Below are positions 6,901-64,000 of a DNA stretch of 64,000 nucleotides, piece by piece. Source of the stretch: an uncultured Prolixibacteraceae bacterium (GTDB lineage: Bacteria > Bacteroidota > Bacteroidia > Bacteroidales > FEN-979); assembly GCA_964642545.1 (NCBI GenBank), contig CAZXQU010000001.1:37171-101170 (forward strand), read 5' to 3'. The notes beneath the pieces were generated by a model. The model did no database searches. It was not told the origin of the DNA and saw only the letters and a list, made by a program, of their open reading frames with translations. Each line of letters starts with the position of its first letter. The stretch's first letter is position 1. Made by a program: the position numbers and the translations under genes.

Positions 6901-8461
6901 TCACATAATGGATCAATTTATCCTTGACAACCGCTTTTTTATCATCCTGATCATAGATTAAAAAACCTTTGGCACTAAGCAGAAGCAACTGTGACTCAAC
7001 CTGGGCCGGAGGCATCCTCCAGAATGTCACCAACTCCCCCAGTTCAAACTCACGTGAGTTCCGCCTTTCGATGAACGTTTTGATGATCTGAAGAGGATTC
7101 AGCTCATCGATCCCCTGAAGCTTTTCGTAACGCCGGAGTGAAAAGTAATTACTGGATTCGAAGGTTGCTTTACTTTTGGTTCCGGGACCACGCATCGCCT
7201 CAAAATTGATCTTGGGCTCATTGGTTTTCCAGAACAGCGCTTCACAATATATCTCGATTTTATGATAAGTGTCAAACCACGGACTGATCAATGCAATCCG
7301 TTCATCTTTATTCAGCGAAAGCTCCTTCGTTTCATCCAGGTATTTAAATACCAATCCGGGATGATAAATCGAGTCAAGATCGTGGTGAATAGTTACCGAT
7401 GCATTGCTGGAGTTGATCCTGTCGGGGCGGATAATGAACGTTTTTGATCTTGCGGTTACGAACTCCTGGTCATCCCGTTTAAATACCAACATGGCATCCT
7501 GGTCATTCAGGCCAAATCCAACAACCTTTCTTCCCTCCATGGAGAATCCTCCCATGTAATCAATATTTTTAAAGATATTCTGGATTCCAATCAGTCCTTC
7601 ATAGGAGTAAAAGCGTGGATAGGAGGCTTTCTCTTCATCAACATCTGCCTGAATCTTATCGATGATACGACCGGTAAGCGGAGAGGGAAGGTAATCTATA
7701 TTGAAAAATTCGACCGAGTCGGCTTCATATTTTGAGAAGCGCATCTGAATCTGGTAGTTGCTAAGGTTAGCATATACCTTCCCCGGATCAAGTCCGGCCC
7801 GTTGCCAGTCGATTTTTCCTCCATACCCTTCCCACCTTGTTTCAATAGGGAAATAACGACCCTGCGTATTGAAAATGGTGAGGCTGTCTCTACTGGAAAA
7901 GCAGATGATATCAGTAGGACGGACCTCCACAATGGAGACTGAGTCATTGAGAAAACGGTAGTTAGGTGTTACTAGCTTCCAAGCTGTTGATGCCGACTTG
8001 TAAAGCATATCCTCCTCAAAAAGATGGATACTGAAATCGATGAAACTCAGAAAATGCCGGGTATATTTTTCTCCAGCCAGGGACTCAAGTACAGCCGACC
8101 AGTCGAAAAATTGCTGGCTGGAAAGACTCTTCTCACAAGTAAGGTTCAATACAACTAAATAGTTATAAAAATCGGGGAAAGCATGCATCCGTTTATTCAG
8201 CATTTTGTTGCATACCGAATAGATCGATTCTTTCTTTGAAAGATCAAAGTGACCCATCACCCAATGCTCTTTAAAGGGTGCCAAGGCTCCTTCAACTATT
8301 TTCTGGTCATTTTTGCTGAGTTTGGTGAAGAGTAGGTCCAGCTCGCTAATAAATTTGTCAGGATCTCCTGAAAAGCTCTTTAATTGTTGGCCATTCAATA
8401 CGAAACCGATCGCCGAAAGAAATAAGATAAAAACAGTTCTAAACGTAGTAGATCTCTTCAT
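3965..8461 (-). CDS. very large secreted protein of unknown function (1498 aa)
   Basis: Uninterrupted 4.5-kb ORF with an N-terminal signal peptide (MKRSTTFRTVFILFLSAIGFVLNGQ). Its ATG overlaps the prmA stop (ATGA at 8458-8461). I recognise no catalytic motif. Confidence 0.7.
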   Translation of the reverse strand: MKRSTTFRTVFILFLSAIGFVLNGQQLKSFSGDPDKFISELDLLFTKLSKNDQKIVEGALAPFKEHWVMGHFDLSKKESIYSVCNKMLNKRMHAFPDFYNYLVVLNLTCEKSLSSQQFFDWSAVLESLAGEKYTRHFLSFIDFSIHLFEEDMLYKSASTAWKLVTPNYRFLNDSVSIVEVRPTDIICFSSRDSLTIFNTQGRYFPIETRWEGYGGKIDWQRAGLDPGKVYANLSNYQIQMRFSKYEADSVEFFNIDYLPSPLTGRIIDKIQADVDEEKASYPRFYSYEGLIGIQNIFKNIDYMGGFSMEGRKVVGFGLNDQDAMLVFKRDDQEFVTARSKTFIIRPDRINSSNASVTIHHDLDSIYHPGLVFKYLDETKELSLNKDERIALISPWFDTYHKIEIYCEALFWKTNEPKINFEAMRGPGTKSKATFESSNYFSLRRYEKLQGIDELNPLQIIKTFIERRNSREFELGELVTFWRMPPAQVESQLLLLSAKGFLIYDQDDKKAVVKDKLIHYVNAKNEKTDYDEIVFTSEVEGKSNATLNLENFDLKIQGIPGVFLSDSQHVYVAPRNQELILKENRNFQFTGKVEAGLFDFYADSCSFDYDKFRLNLPEVDTLEFYVISKKIDPKTGRFPMKKVQTALNDLSGFLLIDDPENKAGIKHSPEYPIFTNQDTATVNWGKPYIYNGVYDKERFYFEVFPFILKSLDYIDTDSLKFDGQLISAGIFPDIPEPLKVRPDFSLGFEKYTDANGYPAYGGKGTFVSKVDLSNQGLQADGQLYYLNSTSVSDHFLFFPDSMQTLARGFQATEQIAAVEYPSVNADSVKEFWLPYQDSMSITSTVRDMAMYNNQSLFDGTLGFTPGGLSGSGTMKIEDAEMDSKGFSFQQHTFDALIADFRIKSYDLNTLAISTQNYRAHFDFEERRGEFRSNLGISKMEFPINKYICSMDRFDWMIDNEEIVLTNEENQRYAIPDNLSLAQLIDVGYTGTEFMSVHPKQDSLRFFALRARYNIRTNIINAEEVKIIKVADAAIYPDSGKVEILKNAEISQLTNANIIANTRSREHSFYDASVNILGRKRYSGSGIYDYIDRTGSHQEIFFDKISVDTSGNTVGTGTISESADFMLSPEFAFIGNIRLDAPVKAMTFSGAFKPTVECYNLGTNWVKFSSRVNPDYIKLPVSDPIQNRNSEKVVLGMVYSNAENIIYPAFFTPRRSFSDTIMISTSGILQYQIPISTFQAGMPDTNGNLASAGAKVSLNTYNCMMRAEGKINLGFNSGPLQMESYGTMDYYVLPDSASLRLSLILDFPFEERVAEHIRTQMTSTNLPGIQLFKSPFNFVFNELIPDKEREKLKSELETVGRFRKFPEELTKTMIIADVKMSFDTLTRSFVSDGAIGIGSILDGMVNRYLNGKIEFTRKRNGDEFTIYLEISANDWYFFNYRNNVMRFISSDFDSNDKIKEALLNKKEKKRLNKAWRGYSYTLSTDHKKRDFIRKFEMGEE

Positions 8462-9318
8462 CCATTGAATTTTGCAACCATCCAGTTGTTCTTAACCCGG
8501 GTTCCGGAGATTCTAAGTCCGTGCTTTCCTGCATAGGCTTCAACCGTAGGCAGATCTTCTGTATAAAACCCGCTTAGAAACAGCCCCCCCCCCTTTTTTA
8601 ATGCAGTTGCATAGGACGGAATCTGCTCGATCAAGGTATTTCGGTTGATATTTGCTAGTATCACGTCAAATTGTTCGAGTGGAATATCCGAAGCGTCTCC
8701 CCGAATAACGTCAATAGTACTTGTATTATTCTTTATCACATTCTCCAAGGCATTCTCAACAGCCCATTTATCATAATCGATCGCAACTACCCGGCCGGCC
8801 CCCATTTTGGAGGCCAGGATTGCCAGTACTCCGGTGCCGCAGCCCATATCAAGAACTGTTTTACCGATCACAACTTCATCCAGGAGGGATTCAATCATCA
8901 GGGAGGTCGTTTCATGATGGGCCGTGCCGAAAGACATCTTTGGTTCAATAACAATGTCAATTATGGATGCTGGATGCCGGATGCCGGATGCCGGATGAAA
9001 TGGAGCGCGGATATAGCATCTTCCAGCGACCAGAACCGGTTCATAAGAGCTTTCCCAGATCGCGTTCCAATTTTCTTCCGGCATCCTTGTAACACTCCAG
9101 AAAAGATCTTTCAGATTAGGATATTTATTCAGGACCTGATGAATTTCGCCTTCGTTAAAATCCATTTCCTTGATGTAGGCAAACAGTACTGTATCTTCTT
9201 CATTGAAACTATCAAATCCCACCTCCGACAGTTCAGCTATCAGAATGTCTGAATAGCCCTGAACAACAGGCTGAAATGCTATTTCAAGAAAAAGTGAGGA
9301 GGGTTGATGGCTGCCCAT
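8458..9318 (-). CDS. prmA: ribosomal protein L11 methyltransferase
   Basis: It has the SAM-binding motif DMGCGTGVLAI, preceded by PKMSFGTAHHETT, and a PrmA-like N-terminal domain. It contains an in-frame heptamer array (8965-8999). Confidence 0.9.
   Translation of the reverse strand: MGSHQPSSLFLEIAFQPVVQGYSDILIAELSEVGFDSFNEEDTVLFAYIKEMDFNEGEIHQVLNKYPNLKDLFWSVTRMPEENWNAIWESSYEPVLVAGRCYIRAPFHPASGIRHPASIIDIVIEPKMSFGTAHHETTSLMIESLLDEVVIGKTVLDMGCGTGVLAILASKMGAGRVVAIDYDKWAVENALENVIKNNTSTIDVIRGDASDIPLEQFDVILANINRNTLIEQIPSYATALKKGGGLFLSGFYTEDLPTVEAYAGKHGLRISGTRVKNNWMVAKFNG
8584..8599. repeat. homopolymer tract C10 T6 (G10 on the coding strand) inside prmA
   Basis: The plus strand reads cagCCCCCCCCCCTTTTTTaa. 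The coding strand reads tta aaa aag ggg ggg ggg ctg (LKKGGGL). Confidence 0.9.
8965..8999. repeat. heptamer array (GGATGCY) x5 inside prmA
   Basis: The units are ggatgct ggatgcc ggatgcc ggatgcc ggatgaa. On the coding strand they read in all three frames as HPASGIRHPAS. Confidence 0.95.
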
Positions 9319-54296: not shown

Positions 54297-57200
54297 CTAT
54301 TTTGTCTTATCCGGAAACTCCGGCACTTCAGGCAACTCTTTTGGCCAATTTTCCAGTTCAATCATGATCAGTTCGATGGCTTTGTTCAGCTGCTCATCTT
54401 CACCGGCATACTCCTTGGCAGGATCATTGTCGACCCACACATCCGGTTCAACACCAACGCCTTCCATCGCCCATTTGTTCTCCCTGAAATCATAGTTGGC
54501 AAATTCGGGTTTCTGCAATGACCCTCCATCGATGAAGGGCAAGGATCCGCGGATCCCAATCACACCTCCCCAGGTGCGTGTACCAACCAGCTTACCAAGG
54601 TTCAATTGTTTAAACTGGTACGGGAAGAGGTCACCATCAGATGCAGAATACTGGTCGATCAAACAGATCTTCGGACCCCACATAAATGGGATCCTTCCGG
54701 GAACGGGATCGGTATTTCGCGCCATCCGCATAATCACTGCTTCTCGCTTTAGGCGCTCGATAATCATAGGGGAGACATTTCCTCCGCCATTTCCACGGTC
54801 ATCAATAATCAGCGCACGTTTGGTAAGCTGCGGGTAGAAATATTTCACAAATTCGTTTAGTCCGCCCGGACCCATATCAGGGATGTGAATGTATCCGACC
54901 TCCCCGTTTGTTGCCTCATTCACTTTGATGATATTCTCCTGCACCCAGTTATAGTAGTACAGATCAGCTTCATCAGCGACCGGCACAACAATTGTTTTAT
55001 GTGACCCATCCGCATCAGGCTTTCCGTTCACTGTAAGCTCAACCTGAACGCCGGCTTTATTCACAAGTGATTGGTAGAAATCGTTCATCACTTTTGTGGA
55101 GATGCCGTCAACGGCAATAATGAAATCACCCTTAGCCACAGTAACACCCATTTCGGACAGAGGGGAGCGGTTCTTTGTTGACCAATTCTCACCTTGCAGG
55201 ATCTCATTAATACGGTAATAACCTGATTTATCCCGTGTGATGGTAGCTCCCAGAAGCCCCAATTTGATCCTTTCGGGCTTGGGCTTATCTCCAGCACTTA
55301 CATAAGCATGTCCAACGTTGAGTTCACCAATCATCTCACCGATGATATAATTAAGATCATTCCGGTTGTTCACATAAGGTACCAGGGGAGCATATTTCGC
55401 CCGGATGACATCCCAGTCTAAGCCATGCATGTTTGGGGCATAAAAGAAATACTTCATCTGACGCCACGACTCATTGAAGATCTGATTCCATTCAGCCTGC
55501 AGGTCCACCATAATCTTCATGTTAGAAAGATCCACATAATCCTTTTCAGTGATCTTGGATTTGGGAAGGTCTATCACAGCATATTTATCCTCTTTTACCA
55601 GTAACATCTTCTTATGGCTGGAAGCGATTTCATAGTTCCCATATTCACCCAGTTCCGTCTCTTTCTTATCCTTCAGGTTAAAGAAACAGAGTGTAGGTTG
55701 ATCGCCACGTTTGTTTTTGACATAATACACATCACCATCAAGGGCACTAATTCCCCAGTAGATCCCGGCATCCAGCGGAAGTTTAACCGTTCGGGCCATA
55801 ATTCCATCAAGATCAACTTTCATATCCAGATGTTTACTGTCATCTTTTTCTTTCGTATTTGGCTCCGCCGAACTCTTCTTCGCTTCTTTTCCTAATTTCG
55901 AATTTCCATCCTCATTTACCTCCACTTCATCGTTCTCATAAGCAAAGGGAGAGGGAGTACTTTTCGCCAGGGTAACGAAATAGATATTACTCATATCATT
56001 GTATGCATGATTCCACTCTGTCCAGCTGTATATCGGATTGAAATCACGATTGGATGCAAAAAAGAGGTATTTCCCATCCGAAGAGAAAGCCGGTTCTCCA
56101 ACATCATACCATCCGTCAGTGACAGGAGTGGAAGTTCCGGAAGCCAGTTCATACAGAAAGATCTTTGACTCTCCGCGTTGAACAGGCTCTGTAAATGCAA
56201 TCCATTTACTATCAGGCGACCATGTATAATCCTGGTATTCAAATGCTTTTGTTTGGGCAACAGTCACCACCTTTTTCGTTTCAATATCAACATACTGCAA
56301 TCGTAGCATCTTATCGCTCCACATCAACTTTTTTCTGTCGGGCGACCACATAGGAAAATATTTATACGTGTCGGCATTTTTTGTAATCTGAACCGCCGGT
56401 TCACTTCCATCCTGGTTGATGATGTAGATTTCATCTTCACCCGTTTGATCTGAGACAAAAGAGAGGTACTTTCCGTCAGGCGACCACGCCACATCACGGT
56501 CATGAGCACCTGAAGAGAGTGTCAGGTCCTTTGTTATTCCTGATTTGACCGGGACAGTAAAGATATCGCCCCGTGCATCAAATCCAAGTCGTTTGCCATC
56601 AGGGGAAATTGTAAACGAGTTGATGATCTTACTGGCGTCTTTCAGCTGATTTCTTCCTGTGATGAAGTCGTTTGCAATGCTGATATCTATTTTTGAAGAC
56701 TGCTCAGTAACCAGGTCAAAAGTATAGAGATATCCCCCATTCTCGTAAATGATCGCAGCATCTCCCATTGAGGGAAACTTCACATCATAGTTAGTATAGT
56801 TGGTGAGTTTTCTAGTCTCCTTTGTTTTCAGGTCGATGACAAAAAGATTCATGGTACGGTCGCGGTCGGAACAAAAATAGATCCTCTCCCCTCTCCACAT
56901 CGGAAAGATATCCTGGGCAGGATTGTTGGTAAGATTCTCTGTTTTTTGACTGTTAAAATCATGGATCCAGATGTCGTCGGCCATGCCTCCTCGGTAATAC
57001 TTCCAGGTACGAAATTCTCTGAAGACACGGTTGTAGGCAAGCTTTGTCTTATCCGGTGAGTACGAGCAGAAACCACCAACCGGCAAGGGAAGTTCTTCAG
57101 AGAGGCCGCCTTCCTTGTTGATCAGGAACAGCTGGCCTTTGAAGCTGTTGAACGATTGCTTTCTCGATCGGTAAACAATATTGTCATTGTCGCGCCAGGT

Positions 57201-57578
57201 CATTACGATGTTATTGGGTCCCATCCGGTCAGAGATATCATCCCGTCCCAGTGTTGCAGTGTATGTTAATCTCTTAGGGACTCCTCCTTGAGCAGGGATC
57301 AGAAAGACTTCTGTATTTCCATCATATTGTCCGGTAAAAGCAATGTTTGAACCATCCGGCGAAAACCGGGCAAACATCTCATAGCCGTCGGAATCGTTGG
57401 TAAGCTTGCGTGCAACTCCTCCTGTTTTAGCAACAGTATAGAGGTCTCCTGCGTATGTGAACGCGATCTGATCACCGTGGATTGCCGGAAAACGGAGTAA
57501 CCGGGCTTCATCCTGTGCACTGACAACTCCGAGAAGAAGGAATGCAAAGAGCGTAATAGCTAGTTTTTTCATTATCAT
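54297..57578 (-). CDS. tricorn protease homologue (S41 peptidase with beta-propellers and PDZ)
   Basis: 1093 aa. The N-terminus LLRFPAIHGDQIAFTYAGDLYTV is followed by TolB/WD40-like repeats (SPDG... recurring) and a PDZ-like region. The S41 core includes IIDDRGNGGG and DQYSASDGD. Confidence 0.85.
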   Translation of the reverse strand: MIMKKLAITLFAFLLLGVVSAQDEARLLRFPAIHGDQIAFTYAGDLYTVAKTGGVARKLTNDSDGYEMFARFSPDGSNIAFTGQYDGNTEVFLIPAQGGVPKRLTYTATLGRDDISDRMGPNNIVMTWRDNDNIVYRSRKQSFNSFKGQLFLINKEGGLSEELPLPVGGFCSYSPDKTKLAYNRVFREFRTWKYYRGGMADDIWIHDFNSQKTENLTNNPAQDIFPMWRGERIYFCSDRDRTMNLFVIDLKTKETRKLTNYTNYDVKFPSMGDAAIIYENGGYLYTFDLVTEQSSKIDISIANDFITGRNQLKDASKIINSFTISPDGKRLGFDARGDIFTVPVKSGITKDLTLSSGAHDRDVAWSPDGKYLSFVSDQTGEDEIYIINQDGSEPAVQITKNADTYKYFPMWSPDRKKLMWSDKMLRLQYVDIETKKVVTVAQTKAFEYQDYTWSPDSKWIAFTEPVQRGESKIFLYELASGTSTPVTDGWYDVGEPAFSSDGKYLFFASNRDFNPIYSWTEWNHAYNDMSNIYFVTLAKSTPSPFAYENDEVEVNEDGNSKLGKEAKKSSAEPNTKEKDDSKHLDMKVDLDGIMARTVKLPLDAGIYWGISALDGDVYYVKNKRGDQPTLCFFNLKDKKETELGEYGNYEIASSHKKMLLVKEDKYAVIDLPKSKITEKDYVDLSNMKIMVDLQAEWNQIFNESWRQMKYFFYAPNMHGLDWDVIRAKYAPLVPYVNNRNDLNYIIGEMIGELNVGHAYVSAGDKPKPERIKLGLLGATITRDKSGYYRINEILQGENWSTKNRSPLSEMGVTVAKGDFIIAVDGISTKVMNDFYQSLVNKAGVQVELTVNGKPDADGSHKTIVVPVADEADLYYYNWVQENIIKVNEATNGEVGYIHIPDMGPGGLNEFVKYFYPQLTKRALIIDDRGNGGGNVSPMIIERLKREAVIMRMARNTDPVPGRIPFMWGPKICLIDQYSASDGDLFPYQFKQLNLGKLVGTRTWGGVIGIRGSLPFIDGGSLQKPEFANYDFRENKWAMEGVGVEPDVWVDNDPAKEYAGEDEQLNKAIELIMIELENWPKELPEVPEFPDKTK

Positions 57579-57606
57579 AAAATTGCGTTAGACTTCTGTT
57601 ACAAGC

Positions 57607-57614
57607 CAAAAATA
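57607..57614 (-). promoter_or_regulatory. -7 box for the tricorn protease gene
   Basis: The minus strand reads TATTTTTG, 28 nt upstream of the ATG at 57578. Confidence 0.5.
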
Positions 57615-57774
57615 CCCAGAATTCATGGAATGGGAAACAATTTTTGATGACAATATCTTTTTACACGATAAGATTTAAACCTCTCACCTTATTTATTCCC
57701 TGGTTTAATTGTCAGTTGAGCAAGGTGTAAAAGAATTCATATCCCCATGTGTAAATTCATCGAGGAGAAAATCA

Positions 57775-57782
57775 TATTTTTG
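57775..57782 (+). promoter_or_regulatory. -7 box for the OsmC gene
   Basis: TATTTTTG is present. The predicted ~75-nt leader is mostly heptamer array. Confidence 0.5.
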
Positions 57783-57803
57783 CAGAAAAACCGAAAGCTG
57801 GAT

Positions 57804-57859
57804 CCCAGATCCCAGATCCCAGATCCCAAATCTCTAATCCCTAATCCCTAATCCCTGAT
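57804..57859. repeat. morphing heptamer array x8 (CCCAGAT to CCCTAAT) in the OsmC leader
   Basis: The units are cccagat x3, cccaaat, ctctaat, ccctaat x2, ccctgat. The array lies between the -7 box (57775-57782) and the ATG at 57865. Confidence 0.95.
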
Positions 57860-57864
57860 TCTTT

Positions 57865-58260
57865 ATGTCAATTGAAGTAAAATTTCCAGGCGGAGTGAAA
57901 GTAGACGCCCTTATCGAACCATTTGTAATTTCCACAGACCAGCCTGTCAGAGGAGGCGGAGAGGGTACAGCCCCTGCTCCTTTCTCACTATTTCTTGCAT
58001 CACTTGCAACCTGTGCCGGCTATTATGTAAAAGCTTTCTGTGACTCACGTCAGCTCTTCTCGGAAGGGGTTTCCCTTACAATGGATACAATATATGATCC
58101 ATTGAACAAAATGATTGGAAAGATCATTATTAAGATTATCGTTCCAATGGATTTTCCAGAGAAATATGATAATGCCCTGATCAATGCAGCCAATGTGTGT
58201 GCTGTGAAACGGCATCTGTCTGACCAGATTGAGGTCGAAACCCTTGTTGTAAGAGAATAA
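57865..58260 (+). CDS. OsmC family protein (peroxiredoxin-like)
   Basis: 131 aa. It has an OsmC-like pattern with two cysteines (LASLATCAGYY ... NVCAVKRHL). Confidence 0.75.
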   Translation: MSIEVKFPGGVKVDALIEPFVISTDQPVRGGGEGTAPAPFSLFLASLATCAGYYVKAFCDSRQLFSEGVSLTMDTIYDPLNKMIGKIIIKIIVPMDFPEKYDNALINAANVCAVKRHLSDQIEVETLVVRE

Positions 58261-58288
58261 GGCACAGGGCACAAGGCACAGGGCACAG
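58261..58288. repeat. heptamer array (GGCACAG) x4 starting immediately after the OsmC stop codon
   Basis: The units are ggcacag ggcacaa ggcacag ggcacag. The array is the left flank of the PLP-enzyme remnant. Confidence 0.92.
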
Positions 58289-58413
58289 GAGAATGCCATG
58301 AAAGTTGCCGAATACCTAGAAGCACATCCCAAAGTAGCATGGGTTAAGTACCCCGGGCATAACGTGGGATTCTGTGTTTTGGCTGTATCCCTTGGGGGAA
58401 TAGAGACCCTGAT
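58289..58413 (+). pseudogene. remnant of a Cys/Met-metabolism PLP enzyme (cystathionine gamma-synthase / methionine gamma-lyase / OAH sulfhydrylase family)
   Basis: The translation ENAMKVAEYLEAHPKVAWVKYPG...FCVLAVSLGGIETLIQYPAS matches two conserved C-terminal blocks of the family (..NA.KVAEFL..HP.V..V.YPGL and F..A.SLGG.ESLI.HPASMTH). About 40 aa between the blocks are missing, as are the whole N-terminal ~300 aa and the last ~40 aa. The remnant is flanked by heptamer arrays on both sides. Confidence 0.6.
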
Positions 58414-58448
58414 CCAGTATCCAGCATCCAGCATCTGGCATCCAGCAT
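58414..58448. repeat. heptamer array (CCAGCAT) x5, right flank of the PLP-enzyme remnant
   Basis: The units are ccagtat ccagcat ccagcat ctggcat ccagcat. They read as YPASSIWHPAS in the remnant frame. Confidence 0.92.
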
Positions 58449-58495
58449 CAAAAATATCGCGTATATTTGTCCGTTTGATACGTAAACTGATTCGG

Positions 58496-60796
58496 ATGAT
58501 CCGCCAGCTGAAGATACTTATATCCTTTCTGGTCATATTAATCACACTGTTTCCTTCTCCTGGTTTCTCCCAGAAGGTAGCCCTTGTGCTTTCGGGAGGC
58601 GGAGCACGCGGGGCAGCCCATATCGGGGTAATCAGGGCACTCGAAGAGAACCAGATTCCGATCAACTATATAGTTGGTACTTCTATAGGTGCCATCGTTG
58701 GAGCTCTGTACGCCATTGGTTACACTCCTGATGAGATCGAGCAACTGATGAGCTCTCCTGAATTTTCCAATTGGGCATCCGGCTCAATTGACGAAAAGTA
58801 CCGTTATTATTTCAGGAAAGATGATCCTACTCCCTCCTGGGTATCCCTTGATTTCAATCCCAAAAAGAAATTAAGTACAGTTATTCCAACCAACCTGATC
58901 AATCCATATGAGATTGATTTTGAGTTCATGCGCCTGCTGGGACCTGCAGCAGCGGCAGCCTGTTATAATTTCGATAACCTGATGGTCCCATTCCGGTGTG
59001 TTTTATCAGATATTGATTCCACACAACCATTGGTAATGAGAGGGGGGAATCTCAGTACAGCAGTTCGGGGATCCATGTCTATTCCTTTGATTTACAATCC
59101 TTTACGATATAATGATAAATTACTTTTCGATGGTGGCATGTACAACAATTTCCCGGCAAATGTTGCACAGGAGGACTTTCATCCGGATGTTATCATTGGA
59201 TCAAGGGTGGCCCAGCGTTATAGCAAAGCTGACCCCGACGATGTGATCAGTCAGCTTATGATCATGTTGATGGAACGACAGAATGACACCATTACCTACC
59301 CAAACTCAGTGATGATCGTGCCTTCAATTCCCAAAATCAACCTGCTTGATTTTTCACAGACTGAAATTTTGGCTGATAGTGGCTATTTGGCGGCTATCTC
59401 AATGATCCCTGAGATTCGAAAGCTGGTAGCAGACACCATTACTCCCGAAGTTCTCCTCAGGAAGAGGACTATCTTCAAGGCCAAAGAACCTGAGATGTTA
59501 TTTGATTCTATCGTTGTAACAGGACTCACAAAAGCGCAGGCTCAGTATGTCCAAAAAATATTGAAGCACAACCAAAAGACTGTTACCATCAATGAATTAA
59601 AAAAGGCCTATTTCAGATTCATTGATGAAGGTTTTGTCAAGACGATTTTCCCTACTACAAGGTACAACCCACAAACTGGATATTATGACCTTTACCTGGA
59701 TATTCAAAAAGCTCCAGGTTTCAACGTGCAATTTGGCGGAAACCTCTCCCTGGGGACCAGCAATGAAGGATTTCTTCAGCTTCGGTACAAATATCTTTGG
59801 AACCATGCGATCAGGGTTCTGGCGAACGGATATTTTGGCAGATTCTATAGTTCTGCTAAGGTTGGCGGGCGGATTGACTTCACATCAAAACTACCCTGGT
59901 ATCTGGAACTTTACTACACATATAACAATTACAACTATTTCAATAATACGACCTATTTCTTTGATGACCTGACACCCTCAAATATCAAGCAATGGGAGAG
60001 TTTTACTTCCCTAAAAGGGGGTATCCCTATTACGAACAAAGGGAAACTTACCCTGGGATTAATCAATGCGATTACCTCTTCTGATTATTACCAAACCAAT
60101 GATTTTTCGCGACTCGATACAGCTGATCAAACCAAATTTAATTACTTCACTCCCAGGATCTGTTTTGAGCTGAATAGTCTGAATCGAAAACAATACGCCA
60201 ATGCCGGAGCCCGTCTTAGCATTTCACTGACATATGTGAACGGGAGGGAGATTCTCATTCCCGGGTCCCAGTCAGCCAACAAATCAGAACAAACCGTGTA
60301 TCATGAATGGCTTGAGATCAAAGGAATTTACGATAATTATTTTGAAACCATAGGTCCGCTCAAACTTGGCTTTTTTGGAGAAGTTTGCATAACCAACCAG
60401 CCATTTTTCTTAAACTACACATCCTCTATTATGTATTCACCAGCATTCCAACCGCTTCCGGAAATGCAGTCTTTATTCCTGCCTCAATTCAGGGCCTCTA
60501 GTTACCTGGCAGGTGGATTGAAAGCCATTTTAACAATCTATAAAAAGCTGGAAATCAGAGCCGAAGGTTATATATTTCAACCATATCAACAAATCCTGCA
60601 AAGCCCCATTGATTATACCGCGTACCATGGGCCAATCCTGAGTGACCGATCATACATTGCAGCAGCAACGCTCGTTTACCACACGTTTCTTGGGCCATTG
60701 AGTGCCGGCTTTAGTTTCTATGACAAATTACAAGATCCCTTTACCTTCAATCTCAATTTCGGGTATATCATCTTTAATCGTAGTGCCTTACCATAA
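58496..60796 (+). CDS. patatin-like phospholipase fused to an Omp85/BamA-like beta-barrel (PlpD-like)
   Basis: The signal peptide starts at ATG 58496 (MIRQLKILISFLVILITLF). Patatin motifs are present: GGGARG, GTSIG (GxSxG) and FDGG (catalytic Asp). The C-terminal ~450 aa are aromatic-rich and barrel-like. The ORF-track start at 58298 would fuse the pseudogene remnant onto it. Confidence 0.82.
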   Translation: MIRQLKILISFLVILITLFPSPGFSQKVALVLSGGGARGAAHIGVIRALEENQIPINYIVGTSIGAIVGALYAIGYTPDEIEQLMSSPEFSNWASGSIDEKYRYYFRKDDPTPSWVSLDFNPKKKLSTVIPTNLINPYEIDFEFMRLLGPAAAAACYNFDNLMVPFRCVLSDIDSTQPLVMRGGNLSTAVRGSMSIPLIYNPLRYNDKLLFDGGMYNNFPANVAQEDFHPDVIIGSRVAQRYSKADPDDVISQLMIMLMERQNDTITYPNSVMIVPSIPKINLLDFSQTEILADSGYLAAISMIPEIRKLVADTITPEVLLRKRTIFKAKEPEMLFDSIVVTGLTKAQAQYVQKILKHNQKTVTINELKKAYFRFIDEGFVKTIFPTTRYNPQTGYYDLYLDIQKAPGFNVQFGGNLSLGTSNEGFLQLRYKYLWNHAIRVLANGYFGRFYSSAKVGGRIDFTSKLPWYLELYYTYNNYNYFNNTTYFFDDLTPSNIKQWESFTSLKGGIPITNKGKLTLGLINAITSSDYYQTNDFSRLDTADQTKFNYFTPRICFELNSLNRKQYANAGARLSISLTYVNGREILIPGSQSANKSEQTVYHEWLEIKGIYDNYFETIGPLKLGFFGEVCITNQPFFLNYTSSIMYSPAFQPLPEMQSLFLPQFRASSYLAGGLKAILTIYKKLEIRAEGYIFQPYQQILQSPIDYTAYHGPILSDRSYIAAATLVYHTFLGPLSAGFSFYDKLQDPFTFNLNFGYIIFNRSALP

Positions 60797-60828
60797 TCAC
60801 CGTTATATTGCGGTATCAGAATAAATAC

Positions 60829-60836
60829 TATTTTTG
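60829..60836 (+). promoter_or_regulatory. -7 box for the DUF349 gene
   Basis: TATTTTTG lies 71 nt upstream of the ATG at 60908. Confidence 0.45.
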
Positions 60837-60907
60837 CAATTGAAAACACGACTTACCGGCATCGTTCGGAACCTTCAGAGTATTATTTATATGACGTTTG
60901 TTAACTC

Positions 60908-62983
60908 ATGGAAAACAAAGAGCACACCAATCAGAATCCTGATCTGGAACAAAATCCAGTTCAGGAGGAGAATTCTTCACCTGTTGAATTAAAGGAAACA
61001 TCCACAGAGACCCCGGAAACAGTTCCGGCGGCAACTGATTCTACCGAAGAAAAACCTTCCCAACCAGAAACAACTGAGAATGAGACTGACACTCCAGTTG
61101 TACCGGCAGAAATTCCGACCGCTGCCGAAGAAGAGACATCAGAATCCATTCCTGAAGAGATAGCAGTGGACGAGCCGCAAGCTGTTGAAGAGGTCCCTCC
61201 TATTGATGAGCCCACTGAATCAGTGGAGGAGGAAACGCATGAAGATGAGGAGGATCTTCACCTTCAATTGACAGACGAAAACATCAACCAGTATAGCCAG
61301 GCTCAGCTTCTTGATCTTTTAGAGGTTGCTGTCGCCGAAGCCGATCTCAATGCCGTAAAGGCACGGATTGCCATGATTAAGATGGCTTTCCTGAAGAAAC
61401 GTGACGAATTGCATGAACCGGTTGATATAGATGAAGATAGGGACAACCCACCTGTAAAAAACAAGGAGCAAGACGAGTTAAATATCCGGTTTGAAGCCCT
61501 GTTTAGTGTTTACAAAGCCAACAAAGGGCGTTTCATGGCAGAGCAGGAGAAGCTTAAAAAAGAGAACCTGGAGCGAAAACGCCAGATTCTTGAAGAGCTG
61601 CGAAACCTGATCAGCTCTGACGAGACGCTTAAGAAAACATACGATGAGTTCAAAATCCTACAGGACCAGTGGAAAGAGGTTGGGATGGTGCCGAGAGGTG
61701 AAATCAACGATCTCTGGCAAAATTACCACTTCCTTGTTGAGAAATTTTTCGAAAAAGTCAAGCTGAATAAAGAGCTTAAAGACCTCGACCTGAGGAAGAA
61801 CCTCGAAGCCAAAATTGAACTCTGCGAAAAAACAGAAGAGTTGCTACTGGAGCCATCCGTCTTGAAGTCCTTCAAACAACTTCAGAAATACCATGACGAA
61901 TGGAAGGATATTGGGCCTGCTCCAACGGATAAAAAGGATGAGGTATGGGATCGCTTTAAGAACGCTACCGATAAAATCAATGAGCGTCGCCGCGAGTATT
62001 ATGCATCTCTTGAAGAAGAGCAAAACAACAACCTGGAGACCAAAAACGCGTTGTGCCAACAGGCCGAAGAGGTCTTGACGAATCGAAATGAGACGGTCAA
62101 AGAGTGGCAGGATCAAACGCTCAAAGTCAATGAACTCCTGAAGATATGGAAGAGTATAGGACCGGTTCCTCAAAAAAATAATGCTGAAATCTGGACAAGG
62201 TTCAAAGGGTGCCTTGATAGTTTTTTTGCCAGCAAAAAAGAGTTCTTCGATCGCGTGAAGGATCAGCAGATGCACAATTACAACATGAAAGTTGACCTCT
62301 GTGCCCAGGCTGAAGCCGTCAAGGGAAGCACCGACTGGAAAAAGAGCACCAATGAATTAATTCATCTGCAGGAGGAGTGGAAAAAAATTGGCCCCGTACC
62401 GCGTAAACACTCTGACAAGATCTGGAAACGGTTCCGTTCGGCCTGTGATGATTTTTTTAAGACCAAATCGGCTTACTTCGCCAACATCCATACCCATGAG
62501 GATGAGAATATGAAGGCGAAAGAGGAGCTTCTATCCAAGCTTAAAAGTCATCAGTTCACCGAAGATAAGAGCAAAAATCTCGATGACTTGAAAACCTTCC
62601 AACGAGAATGGACTCAAATTGGCCATGTCCCTTTTAAAGAGCGTGACCGCCTTCAAAATGAATTCCGTAAACTGGTGAATGAACATCTTGATAAACTTAA
62701 GATAAGTGAAGTTGAGATGACTGCCATCAGTTACCAATCGAAGATGGAGTCAATGATGAACGATCCCCAGTCCAAACGGATAATCATACGGGAGAAGGAA
62801 AACCTGTCAGCCAAGATCAGCAAGCTTCGTGAAGACATTAATCTCTGGGAAAATAATATCGGCTTCCTCGCCAATTCAAAAAACGCCAACATTCTTAAAG
62901 ATGAATTCGAAAAGAAGATTGACCTGGCTAAAAATGATCTGAAGGTGATGGAGGCGAAGGTTAAAATATTACGGCAGCAATAA
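60908..62983 (+). CDS. DUF349 repeat protein with an acidic disordered N-terminus
   Basis: At least five repeats have the form W(K/Q)xIGPVP...(IW/VW)xRF (e.g. WKEVGMVPRGEINDLWQNY, WKDIGPAPTDKKDEVWDRF, WKSIGPVPQKNNAEIWTRF, WKKIGPVPRKHSDKIWKRF, WTQIGHVPFKERDRLQNEF). The first ~110 aa are E/T/P-rich. Confidence 0.8.
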   Translation: MENKEHTNQNPDLEQNPVQEENSSPVELKETSTETPETVPAATDSTEEKPSQPETTENETDTPVVPAEIPTAAEEETSESIPEEIAVDEPQAVEEVPPIDEPTESVEEETHEDEEDLHLQLTDENINQYSQAQLLDLLEVAVAEADLNAVKARIAMIKMAFLKKRDELHEPVDIDEDRDNPPVKNKEQDELNIRFEALFSVYKANKGRFMAEQEKLKKENLERKRQILEELRNLISSDETLKKTYDEFKILQDQWKEVGMVPRGEINDLWQNYHFLVEKFFEKVKLNKELKDLDLRKNLEAKIELCEKTEELLLEPSVLKSFKQLQKYHDEWKDIGPAPTDKKDEVWDRFKNATDKINERRREYYASLEEEQNNNLETKNALCQQAEEVLTNRNETVKEWQDQTLKVNELLKIWKSIGPVPQKNNAEIWTRFKGCLDSFFASKKEFFDRVKDQQMHNYNMKVDLCAQAEAVKGSTDWKKSTNELIHLQEEWKKIGPVPRKHSDKIWKRFRSACDDFFKTKSAYFANIHTHEDENMKAKEELLSKLKSHQFTEDKSKNLDDLKTFQREWTQIGHVPFKERDRLQNEFRKLVNEHLDKLKISEVEMTAISYQSKMESMMNDPQSKRIIIREKENLSAKISKLREDINLWENNIGFLANSKNANILKDEFEKKIDLAKNDLKVMEAKVKILRQQ

Positions 62984-62985
62984 AG

Positions 62986-63048
62986 GACGTGAGACGTGGG
63001 ACGTGAGACGTGGGAAGTGAGACGTGAGACGTAAATCGTAAATCGAAC
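62986..63048. repeat. morphing heptamer array x9 (GACGTGR to ATCGTAA) after the DUF349 gene
   Basis: The units are gacgtga gacgtgg gacgtga gacgtgg gaagtga gacgtga gacgtaa atcgtaa atcgaac. The array starts 3 nt after the TAA at 62981-62983. Confidence 0.95.
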
Positions 63049-63110
63049 TGCGAAGCACTCATGAACACCAATGAAATTAGTAATTTGTGAATAATTAATC
63101 GGAGGTCAAA

Positions 63111-64000
63111 TTGTCCAGCAACTCCATAGGAAAAAACATCGTACTGACTACTTTCGGGGAGTCTCACGGGACTGCTGTTGGAGGGATTCTAGATGGATTT
63201 CCTGCAGGGATTGAGATCGACATTCCTATGATTCAATCGGAAATCAACCGGCGTAATCCTGCCAAATATCCGTTTGCCACAGCACGAAAAGAGGATGATA
63301 AACTGGAGATTCTTTCCGGTATCTATGACGGGCAGTCAACAGGGGCTCCAATTGCATTTCTGGTTTATAACCATGATCAAAGGCCCGAGGAATACGATAA
63401 CCTGAAAGACCTCTACCGGCCTTCGCATGCCGACTTTACCTATGAGGCGAGATACGGGATCCGGGATCCGCGTGGTGGCGGAAGGGCTTCGGCACGTACC
63501 ACACTTTCGGTTGTTGCCGGAGGAGCCTTTGCGAAACAGATTCTTGCCCTGAATAAAATCATTGTTATCGGGTATGTTTCCCAAATCGGGCCACATTCGC
63601 TACCAACAGGGTTTAGTCTTGCCGATCGTGCACTTGTAAAACTTTCTCCCCTTGCATGTCCGCATGAAAAGACGACCCAAAAAATGCTTGATTTCCTTCA
63701 CACGTTGAAAGAAGAGGGCGATACAGCAGGAGGTGTCATCTCATGTGTCATCAAAGGTGTTCCCGCCGGAATCGGCGATCCGTTGTTTGGCAAAATCCAG
63801 GCCGACCTGGCCAAAGCGATGCTGAGCATCAATGCGGTAAAAGGATTTGAATACGGATCGGGCTTCAAAGCCGCCTCCATGAAAGGATCAGAGCACAACG
63901 ATGAATTCATCCTGGAAGAGAACCTGATCAGAACAAAAACCAACCACGACGGCGGCATCCAGGGAGGCATCTCCAACGGGATGGACATCACCTTCAACGT
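63111..64000 (+). CDS. aroC: chorismate synthase; 3' end off-window (absent from the supplied ORF track)
   Basis: My own translation from TTG 63111 gives LSSNSIGKNIVLTTFGESHG...RPSHADFTYEARYGIRDPRGGGRASARTT...SINAVKGFEYGSGF...TNHDGGIQGGISNG. No stop occurs before the window edge. An in-frame TAA at 63096-63098 limits any upstream extension. Confidence 0.9.
   Translation, partial: MSSNSIGKNIVLTTFGESHGTAVGGILDGFPAGIEIDIPMIQSEINRRNPAKYPFATARKEDDKLEILSGIYDGQSTGAPIAFLVYNHDQRPEEYDNLKDLYRPSHADFTYEARYGIRDPRGGGRASARTTLSVVAGGAFAKQILALNKIIVIGYVSQIGPHSLPTGFSLADRALVKLSPLACPHEKTTQKMLDFLHTLKEEGDTAGGVISCVIKGVPAGIGDPLFGKIQADLAKAMLSINAVKGFEYGSGFKAASMKGSEHNDEFILEENLIRTKTNHDGGIQGGISNGMDITFN

Follow-up and report, generated by a model that had tools for sequence, protein, structure and literature searches.

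We describe here the spacer between an OsmC-family gene and a patatin-like phospholipase gene in a 64,000-nt stretch of DNA (the window; coordinates refer to it unless a related locus is named). All sequences compared are metagenome assemblies. The OsmC-family gene is intact, encodes 131 aa (57865–58260, + strand; PF02566, E = 7.7e-12) and is syntenic in relatives. Its TAA stop codon (58258–58260) directly abuts a heptamer array, GGCACAG GGCACAA GGCACAG GGCACAG (58261–58288, +), which TRF calls as GGCACAG x4.1 at 58261–58289, the second unit reading GGCACAA. A second array, CCAGTAT CCAGCAT CCAGCAT CTGGCAT CCAGCAT C (58412–58449, +), is called as ATCCAGC/CCAGCAT x5.4, with the variant units CCAGTAT and CTGGCAT. 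The remnants of a gene occupy two blocks (58278–58357 and 58358–58413, both +), and the right array is followed by the patatin promoter and 5′ leader (58450–58495, +) and then by the patatin-like phospholipase coding sequence (58496–60796, +), whose 766-aa product has an N-terminal signal-like hydrophobic segment (PF01734, E = 8.6e-31). In 100 dinucleotide-preserving shuffles, the expected matches of three-unit probes were 0.00 for the left array and 0.01 for the right array; like long simple sequence repeats (SSRs), both have a unit of 5–11 nt in at least three tandem copies, beyond chance. Eight contigs span the spacer from end to end and are base-identical; they come from different samples and at least three data sources (ENA, JGI and Logan). 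The structure of the spacer is therefore not an assembly artefact.

The 83-aa translation of window positions 58262–58510 matches PF01053 in two stretches (E = 1.6e-12; 47.1 bits against a Pfam gathering score of 27), a significant result that bears out the original prediction of a decayed Cys/Met PLP enzyme between OsmC and patatin. In the frame used by the open reading frame (ORF) from 58298, the relic reads AQGTRHRAQENAMKVAEYLEAHPKVAWVKYPGHNVGFCVLAVSLGGIETLIQYPASSIWHPASKISRIFVRLIRKLIRMIRQL, also given as ...RAQENAMKVAEYLEAHPKVAWVKYPGHNVGFCVLAVSLGGIETLIQYPASSIWHPAS.... Methionine gamma-lyases (MGLs) are its top PDB and NCBIfam matches, and the MGL of a related locus, L013, finds the relic as a tblastn query (E = 4e-20). 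The intact orthologue of another relative, L030, scores below the NCBIfam equivalog cut-offs (474.8 versus 549.7 bits for TIGR01328; 498.2 versus 666 for NF004876). Consequently, ‘MGL-like’ is the safe name for the gene: MGL is its best match, and the function is not assured.

Compared with MGLs and trans-sulfuration PLP enzymes (PF01053; TIGR01328, NF004876), the relic has the same two blocks, aligning at 263–288 and about 325–343, but only about 45 of 392 codons are kept. The relic lacks the full-length fold of its orthologues (about 390 aa, with the PLP-binding lysine and the SLTKF motif), and the deletion of MGL nt 1–784 has taken with it the HSLTKFINGH segment present in L030 and L013. 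Its position is that of the orthologous gene in the OsmC–MGL–patatin order. Because the N-terminal and PLP-lysine-bearing parts are gone, the relic is a pseudogene, and the segment 58262–58510 is, as judged from its sequence, a decayed PF01053 gene of the MGL-like kind. A HMMER comparison with PDB ran the second block on through KISRIFVRLIRKLIRM as though it were the MGL C-terminus. We rejected this reading: KISRIFVRLIRKLIRM corresponds to the promoter and 5′ leader of patatin, which are conserved, and its DNA lies 3′ of the intact MGL in L013, L030 and L027.

We collected relatives from species-representative genomes by patatin protein and from metagenomes by OsmC protein. This yielded about 30 informative loci of uncultured Bacteroidales relatives, of which one is labelled Prolixibacteraceae. 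The conserved gene order is tricorn protease (− strand), OsmC, MGL, patatin, DUF349 and aroC. The intact-gene relatives that the original prediction had proposed to seek do exist: at least 15 related loci have an intact MGL of 390–393 aa between OsmC and patatin (L013, L014, L015, L018–L020, L025–L028, L030–L033, L036, L038 and L044), and in L021 the MGL lies next to patatin. By patatin protein identity, the nearest relatives with the intact gene are L030/L031/L032 (92%) and L013 (87%); L013 is the window’s sister in a neighbor-joining tree of patatin that did not include L030. The search found no intact MGL nearer than the L030 group.

The window’s remnants map onto L030 with three gaps, so that at least three deletions are needed to derive them from an intact orthologue, as was predicted. 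Window positions 58278–58356 correspond to L030 5259–5337 (93.7% identical; MGL codons 263–288), 58362–58428 to L030 5451–5517 (codon 326 onward) and 58466–58558 to L030 5757–5849 (patatin promoter, leader and start). The first block equals L030 codons 263–288 (RAQENAMKVAEYLEAHPKVAWVKYPG), and the second equals codons 325–343 (HNVGFCVLAVSLGGIETLI), with 44 nt identical to L030. The first gap comprises 862 nt, being the 78-nt OsmC–MGL spacer and MGL nt 1–784; the second comprises 108 nt, codons 289–324, in frame; and the third comprises about 216 nt, being the ~50 codons at the 3′ end with their stop codon, plus about 65 nt of spacer. Altogether, 136 of the 1179 nt of MGL survive in the window. 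Arrays sit at two of the three junctions, again as predicted. The internal junction (58355–58362, +) carries no array, and a search for microhomology by alignment and mapping to L030 found nothing convincing there. The same internal junction occurs in L007, a contig from a different sample of the same population.

The loss appears to be recent. Block 1 differs from L030 by six synonymous and no non-synonymous changes, and the longer MGL block of L007 differs by 16 synonymous and 5 non-synonymous changes; for patatin, the corresponding counts are 232 and 60. The mostly synonymous differences argue that purifying selection acted on the MGL during most of its history since the split from L030, and that the gene died recently.

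The window is not the only locus without the enzyme. The MGL is absent from L012, L016, L017, L029/L011 and L039–L041, and these loci are scattered on the tree among MGL-bearing lineages, which indicates at least four independent losses (the window, L012, L016 and L017), with L029/L011 as a probable further case. The loss concerns this locus; a second functional copy may exist elsewhere in the genome. Three apparent MGL ‘fragments’ on long contigs (L022, L023 and L024) were set aside as uninformative. Every gene is fragmented on the error-ridden contigs L023 and L024, and in L022 (4029–5204; NCBI GCA_041393255.1), the MGL 5′ of patatin is split by a frameshift into 295 and 67 aa, either another decaying copy or a sequencing error. 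Other states of erosion are visible among the relatives. In L029 (4375–4770; also L011 1–160), the MGL is wholly gone, and the 415-nt OsmC–patatin spacer holds RGGACGT x19, a GC-rich hairpin, a 28-nt repeat of four heptamers (x4) and TTCCGTCATCCCTC x2.5. OsmC is frame-broken in L014 (8493–8680), with a 36-aa ORF, and is reduced in L016 (9690–9803) to its last ~35 codons, adjoining the tricorn start. In L017 (3976–4395), OsmC has lost its own stop codon and runs eight codons into an ACGTGRG array, which supplies a new TAA. With OsmC decaying in two relatives, the neighborhood is a small natural experiment in gene erosion.

We now turn to the patatin gene, with which the relic is in frame. An open frame without a stop runs from 58298 to 60796 (832 aa), and its first 66 codons (58298–58495, +) begin at the native MGL Met269 codon. 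The promoter region contains the −7 element TATATTTG at 58462–58469, 26 nt before the ATG at 58496; the Bacteroidetes −7 consensus is TAnnTTTG or TAHHTTTG (PMC7366714, PMC6847099), and TAnnTTTGTAMGTTTG is kept upstream of patatin in all relatives. Because this conserved box lies between the relic and ATG 58496, the predicted transcription start of patatin falls downstream of the relic. In orthologues, the protein begins at the equivalent methionine: the alignment to patatin runs from residue 1 in eight closer ones and from residues 5–8 in three that are more distant. The 832-aa ORF is thus an artefact, as had been suspected, and ATG 58496 is the true start; the relic is in frame with patatin by chance, via the third deletion. 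Gene calls on four short public contigs (L006, L007, L009 and L010) nevertheless begin at ATG 58298, so that the false 832-aa patatin is already in public gene calls; those on longer contigs begin at ATG 58496, and the 766-aa product occurs on eight contigs. The annotation is corrected here.

RNA folding of 58255–58500 revealed neither a terminator-like hairpin nor excess RNA structure between OsmC and patatin (z = +0.8). A sigma-70 promoter and terminator scan returned nothing beyond chance, the sigma-70 model being unsuited to Bacteroidetes, and positions 57000–63500 gave no Rfam match. We infer that the relic has no function, although a regulatory use may exist.

The left junction reads GAA TAA / GGCACAG GGCACAA GGCACAG GGCACAG / GAG AAT GCC ATG AAA, where the OsmC C-terminal codons AGA GAA TAA are common to the window and L018. 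The final 11 nt of the array (58278–58288, ACAGGGCACAG) equal the native MGL codons (GAC) AGG GCA CAG, encoding (D)RAQ. L030 and L013 read ...ATC GAC AGG GCA CAG GAG/GAA AAT GCC ATG AAA..., and the window matches them from 58278 on. In the 739 kb of related loci, L030 and L013, the window’s two closest relatives, are the only ones with the native seed GACAGGGCACAG, and no other GGCACAG array was found; at the site of the seed, other relatives have GACCGTGCCCAG, GATCGAGCTCAG, GACCGGGCTCAG or GACAAGGCCCAG. The native sequence, ACAG-GGC-ACAG, contains ACAG twice at 7-nt spacing, a 4-nt direct repeat. A seed confined to the window’s own sub-clade, together with the lack of GGCACAG arrays elsewhere in these loci, indicates that the left array was amplified in place from the gene’s own sequence: most likely, it is the lost gene’s RAQ codons repeated. 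No haplotype was seen that has the array inside an otherwise intact MGL (which would read ATCGACAGGGCACAGGGCACA) or the first deletion beside a single unit (which would read GAATAAGGCACAGGAGAATGCC).

The right array marks the fusion point between the Q-H-P-A-S codons of MGL and an array of the spacer, and its history differs. The MGL gene is intact in L013, L030 and L027/L028, and in each of these an ATCCRGC array in the MGL–patatin spacer adjoins ...AAATATC-N-TAnnTTTG; related arrays occupy the same place in L017 (ATCCCGC x4.4) and L016 (ATCGCGT x3.9). Since homologous arrays are present in relatives that keep the gene, the right array is, by sequence comparison, older than the gene loss; for the L007 haplotype, this is based on sister species. 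The original prediction had considered two origins for the array units, the lost gene or foreign DNA, and the answer differs between the two sides: the left array derives from the gene’s own RAQ codons, and the right one is an older spacer array. The ATCCRGC unit family also occurs at an unrelated window locus (8960–8997), inside prmA, so that the spacer array need not derive from MGL.

The population still contains the state before the third deletion, in L007. This contig is 99.8% identical to the window over 1267 nt, with full identity over about 1256 nt that take in the left array and the internal deletion, but diverges from the window at 58412, where it keeps the native GATTCAGCATCCGGCGTCGATGACC in place of the right array. 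Past this point it reads native MGL (GAT TCA GCA TCC GGC GTC GAT GAC C..., 49 protein letters in the MGL frame), and the contig ends 2–3 codons before the MGL stop, short of its spacer. The before/after comparison that was hoped for therefore exists, through the intact relatives and L007. A protein search with the L007-type relic yielded only short MGL fragments and no complete ORF of this type, the OsmC-anchored metagenome scan returned no L007 haplotype past its contig end, and an exact look-up of the patatin protein returned window-type contigs only. The third deletion joins MGL ...CCCTGAT/TCAGCATCCGGCGTC to array ...GAT/CCAGTATCCAGCATC, which share 3 nt exactly (GAT) and are alike at 14 of 20 positions; the CAG CAT CCN GCN TC codons (Q-H-P-A-S) are themselves periodic, with period 7. 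It is plausible from these alignments that the deletion was guided by microhomology or homeology.

We consider it probable that the locus is a recent pseudogene relic shaped by three deletions, with a left array grown in place and a right array that was already there. The ancestral locus would have carried tricorn protease (−), OsmC, the MGL-like PLP enzyme, patatin, DUF349 and aroC, and the MGL would have been destroyed after the split from L030-like relatives. Deletion 1 would have removed the 862 nt from just past the OsmC stop codon to MGL codon 262; deletion 2, the internal 108 nt (codons 289–324), in frame; and deletion 3, the about 216 nt that contained the last ~50 codons, the stop and the after-stop spacer. 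Three GGCACAG units would have been added beside the native seed, most simply by slipped-strand mispairing, and the data fit growth before, with or after deletion 1. The right array, which in MGL-bearing relatives lies upstream of the patatin −7 box, would have been joined by deletion 3 to the array-like MGL segment CTGAT/TCAGCATCCGGC. The L007 haplotype would then be expected to continue through the MGL stop and after-stop arrays to a CCAGCAT-like array next to AAAAATATCGCGTATATTTG.

Two other accounts of the left array deserve comparison with growth in place. During repair of deletion 1, the extra GGCACAG units could have been templated from the adjacent end, making array and deletion a single event; the array indeed coincides with the junction and repeats the sequence to its right, and the GGC of its first unit could equal the native TAAGGC after the OsmC stop in L013. 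However, the internal deletion has no filler, like arrays arise in spacers free of deletions and even in frame inside prmA, and one unit has already been substituted (GGCACAA), so that we regard such a filler as unlikely. Alternatively, a GGCACAG array might already have followed the OsmC stop codon, and a deletion reaching from it to a chance 11-nt match in MGL removed the 862 nt. The right junction arose in this way, arrays in the clade commonly begin directly after stop codons, and GGCACAG is G-rich like other after-stop arrays. Yet in L030 and L013, the sister lineages, the OsmC stop is followed by units of quite another kind (AAYACGA and inverted GAAATAC/GTATTTC), the 739 kb of related loci hold no second GGCACAG array, and the seed is native in exactly the two closest relatives. 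We estimate the chance that a pre-existing random heptamer array matches 11 nt of the 1.2-kb gene as 1179 x 7 / 4^11 = ~0.002, and capture of such an array is, in our assessment, rather improbable.

The segment as a whole can also be read differently. If it were a genuine N-terminal extension of the patatin protein, or a functional upstream ORF, the open frame from ATG 58298 and its use by some public gene calls would be explained; but the 66-codon extension is in no orthologue, the segment’s homology is to an internal part of an MGL enzyme, the conserved −7 box separates it from ATG 58496, and the signal-like N-terminus of patatin would be buried. We judge this reading to be very improbable. 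Metagenome assemblies can be broken or mis-joined at short tandem repeats, and the region holds the ends of several contigs, which raises the question of a chimera or mis-assembly. Against it stand the eight base-identical spanning contigs from ENA, JGI and Logan, and the fact that, before L007 diverges, it has over 140 nt of unique sequence in common with the window, both left junctions among them, which would make a k = 141 chimera with an intact-MGL species unlikely; the probability of mis-assembly is close to negligible.

Considering the arrays more broadly, we retain the pseudogene reading and ask how far the arrays belong to the deletions. TRF found 138 arrays over 32 loci, among them 67, 14 and 11 of period 7, 8 and 14, respectively, and arrays of these periods number ~3–5 per 10 kb in the clade versus 0.5–1.3 per 10 kb in outgroups. 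The window alone holds more than 15 distinct units, and the unit families RGGACGW, ATCCRGC and CTAATCC recur at unrelated spacers. A specific causal link between arrays and deletions, as the original prediction had drawn, is not supported: arrays fill spacers between intact genes (for example, the 238-nt MGL–patatin spacer of L013), the gaps of L012, L039 and L041 are free of arrays despite MGL loss, and the internal deletion has none. Other MGL-less gaps are nearly all arrays (L029, 415 nt; L016; L017), and constrained spacers such as patatin/DUF349 have none. The arrays are not deletion scars as such, and their link to deletions is only loose. The data fit a turnover of unconstrained intergenic DNA by array growth and deletion, in which a newly dead gene is one more substrate.

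Several further arrays were observed. Inside prmA (L11 methyltransferase; window 8960–8997, − strand), a CATCCGG/CATCCAG x4.7 array lies in frame and encodes HPASGIRHPAS, within a loop five residues longer than in the Thermus structure; its HPAS codons form a natural 7-nt proto-repeat, just as they do in MGL. A CTAATCC array ends 3–9 nt before the OsmC start in the window (57834–57856), L013 (~8050–8085), L015, L017, L018 and L030. Its position and unit are kept across relatives that are 70–80% identical in DNA, and the arrays just 5′ of it differ per lineage, which suggests that the CTAATCC array is a constrained 5′-leader element. G-rich RGGACGW arrays begin 0–2 nt after the stops of DUF349, MGL and OsmC (window 62986–63032; L013 9763–9870; L029 4375–4520; L016 9803–9870; L015 13806–13850). 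In same-strand spacers, G exceeds C in 14 of 16 after-stop arrays and C exceeds G in 6 of 9 before-start arrays, counts that come from related loci and are not independent. Directly after the OsmC stop, L013 (8484–8560) and L030 (4397–4450) carry inverted arrays, (GAAATAC)n then (GTATTTC)n, which would form a long hairpin and may be a terminator built from arrays; the window lacks them because of the 862-nt deletion. In L016 (9925–9955), the array TATCCCG TATCGCG TATCGCG corresponds to the single-copy TATCGCGTAT by the patatin −7 box (window 58452–58469, L029, L027 and L013), giving a second example of an array whose proto-repeat is single-copy in relatives. The patatin/DUF349 spacer (60797–60907) is strongly conserved across the clade, with a −7 box followed by ACTTACCGGCATYGTTCGGAACCTT...TATTTATATGACGTTTGTTAACTCATG and no Rfam match, and is a candidate conserved leader or regulatory element.

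A bolder and doubtful proposal is that the arrays of this Bacteroidales clade, instead of arising passively by slippage, are made and maintained by a directional process tied to gene ends, which overwrites unconstrained DNA starting from local 7-nt proto-repeats. If so, it would explain why G-rich RGGACGW and GGCACAG start at the base after stop codons, and why G-poor CTAATCC, ATCCRGC and AATCGTA stand before starts, some kept in position across genera. Arrays would then be the moving edges along which dead genes are eroded, the MGL relic would be a snapshot of this turnover, and the arrays would have a role at the RNA or promoter level.

Among known repeats, prokaryotic long SSRs with units of 5–11 nt have heptamers as their commonest class (Mrazek et al. 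2007, as summarised in PMC4679880; see also PMC4692102). The present arrays resemble these long SSRs in having tandem 7-nt units, 3–15 copies and a mostly non-coding location, with period 7 dominant; they differ in that many unit sequences occur and turn over between relatives, and the clade is absent from the Bacteroidetes passages of PMC4679880. PMC4679880 places TAACTGA repeats in Beggiatoaceae, Cyanobacteria and a few Bacteroidetes; TAACTGA is not among the units that TRF found here. Like the cyanobacterial STRR and TAACTGA heptamers as portrayed there (PMC4679880), the arrays are intergenic and often lie within a few nucleotides of a start codon, as CTAATCC does before OsmC; unlike in those systems, no single unit dominates. 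Phase-variable SSRs differ as well, because the copy number here is fixed across the sampled population, with no variation among the eight spacer-spanning contigs from different samples.

A pseudogene and heptanucleotide SSRs are both known kinds of element, and the principles that govern either are unchanged by this locus. Microsatellites are born from proto-repeats by slipped-strand mispairing, and deletions can be mediated by microhomology. The left array has the same relationship to its relatives as in microsatellite birth, an 11-nt proto-repeat (ACAG-GGC-ACAG) there versus a four-unit array here, although classical slippage seldom involves 7-nt units; and, as in microhomology-mediated deletion, one deletion endpoint lies where gene and array resemble each other. 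The locus documents the origin of one prokaryotic heptamer array, whose unit consists of codons native to a dead gene, and a pre-existing array as the landing site of a deletion whose earlier state survives in the same population. Its value is that of a clean before/after case, for the birth of one array and for another as a deletion endpoint.
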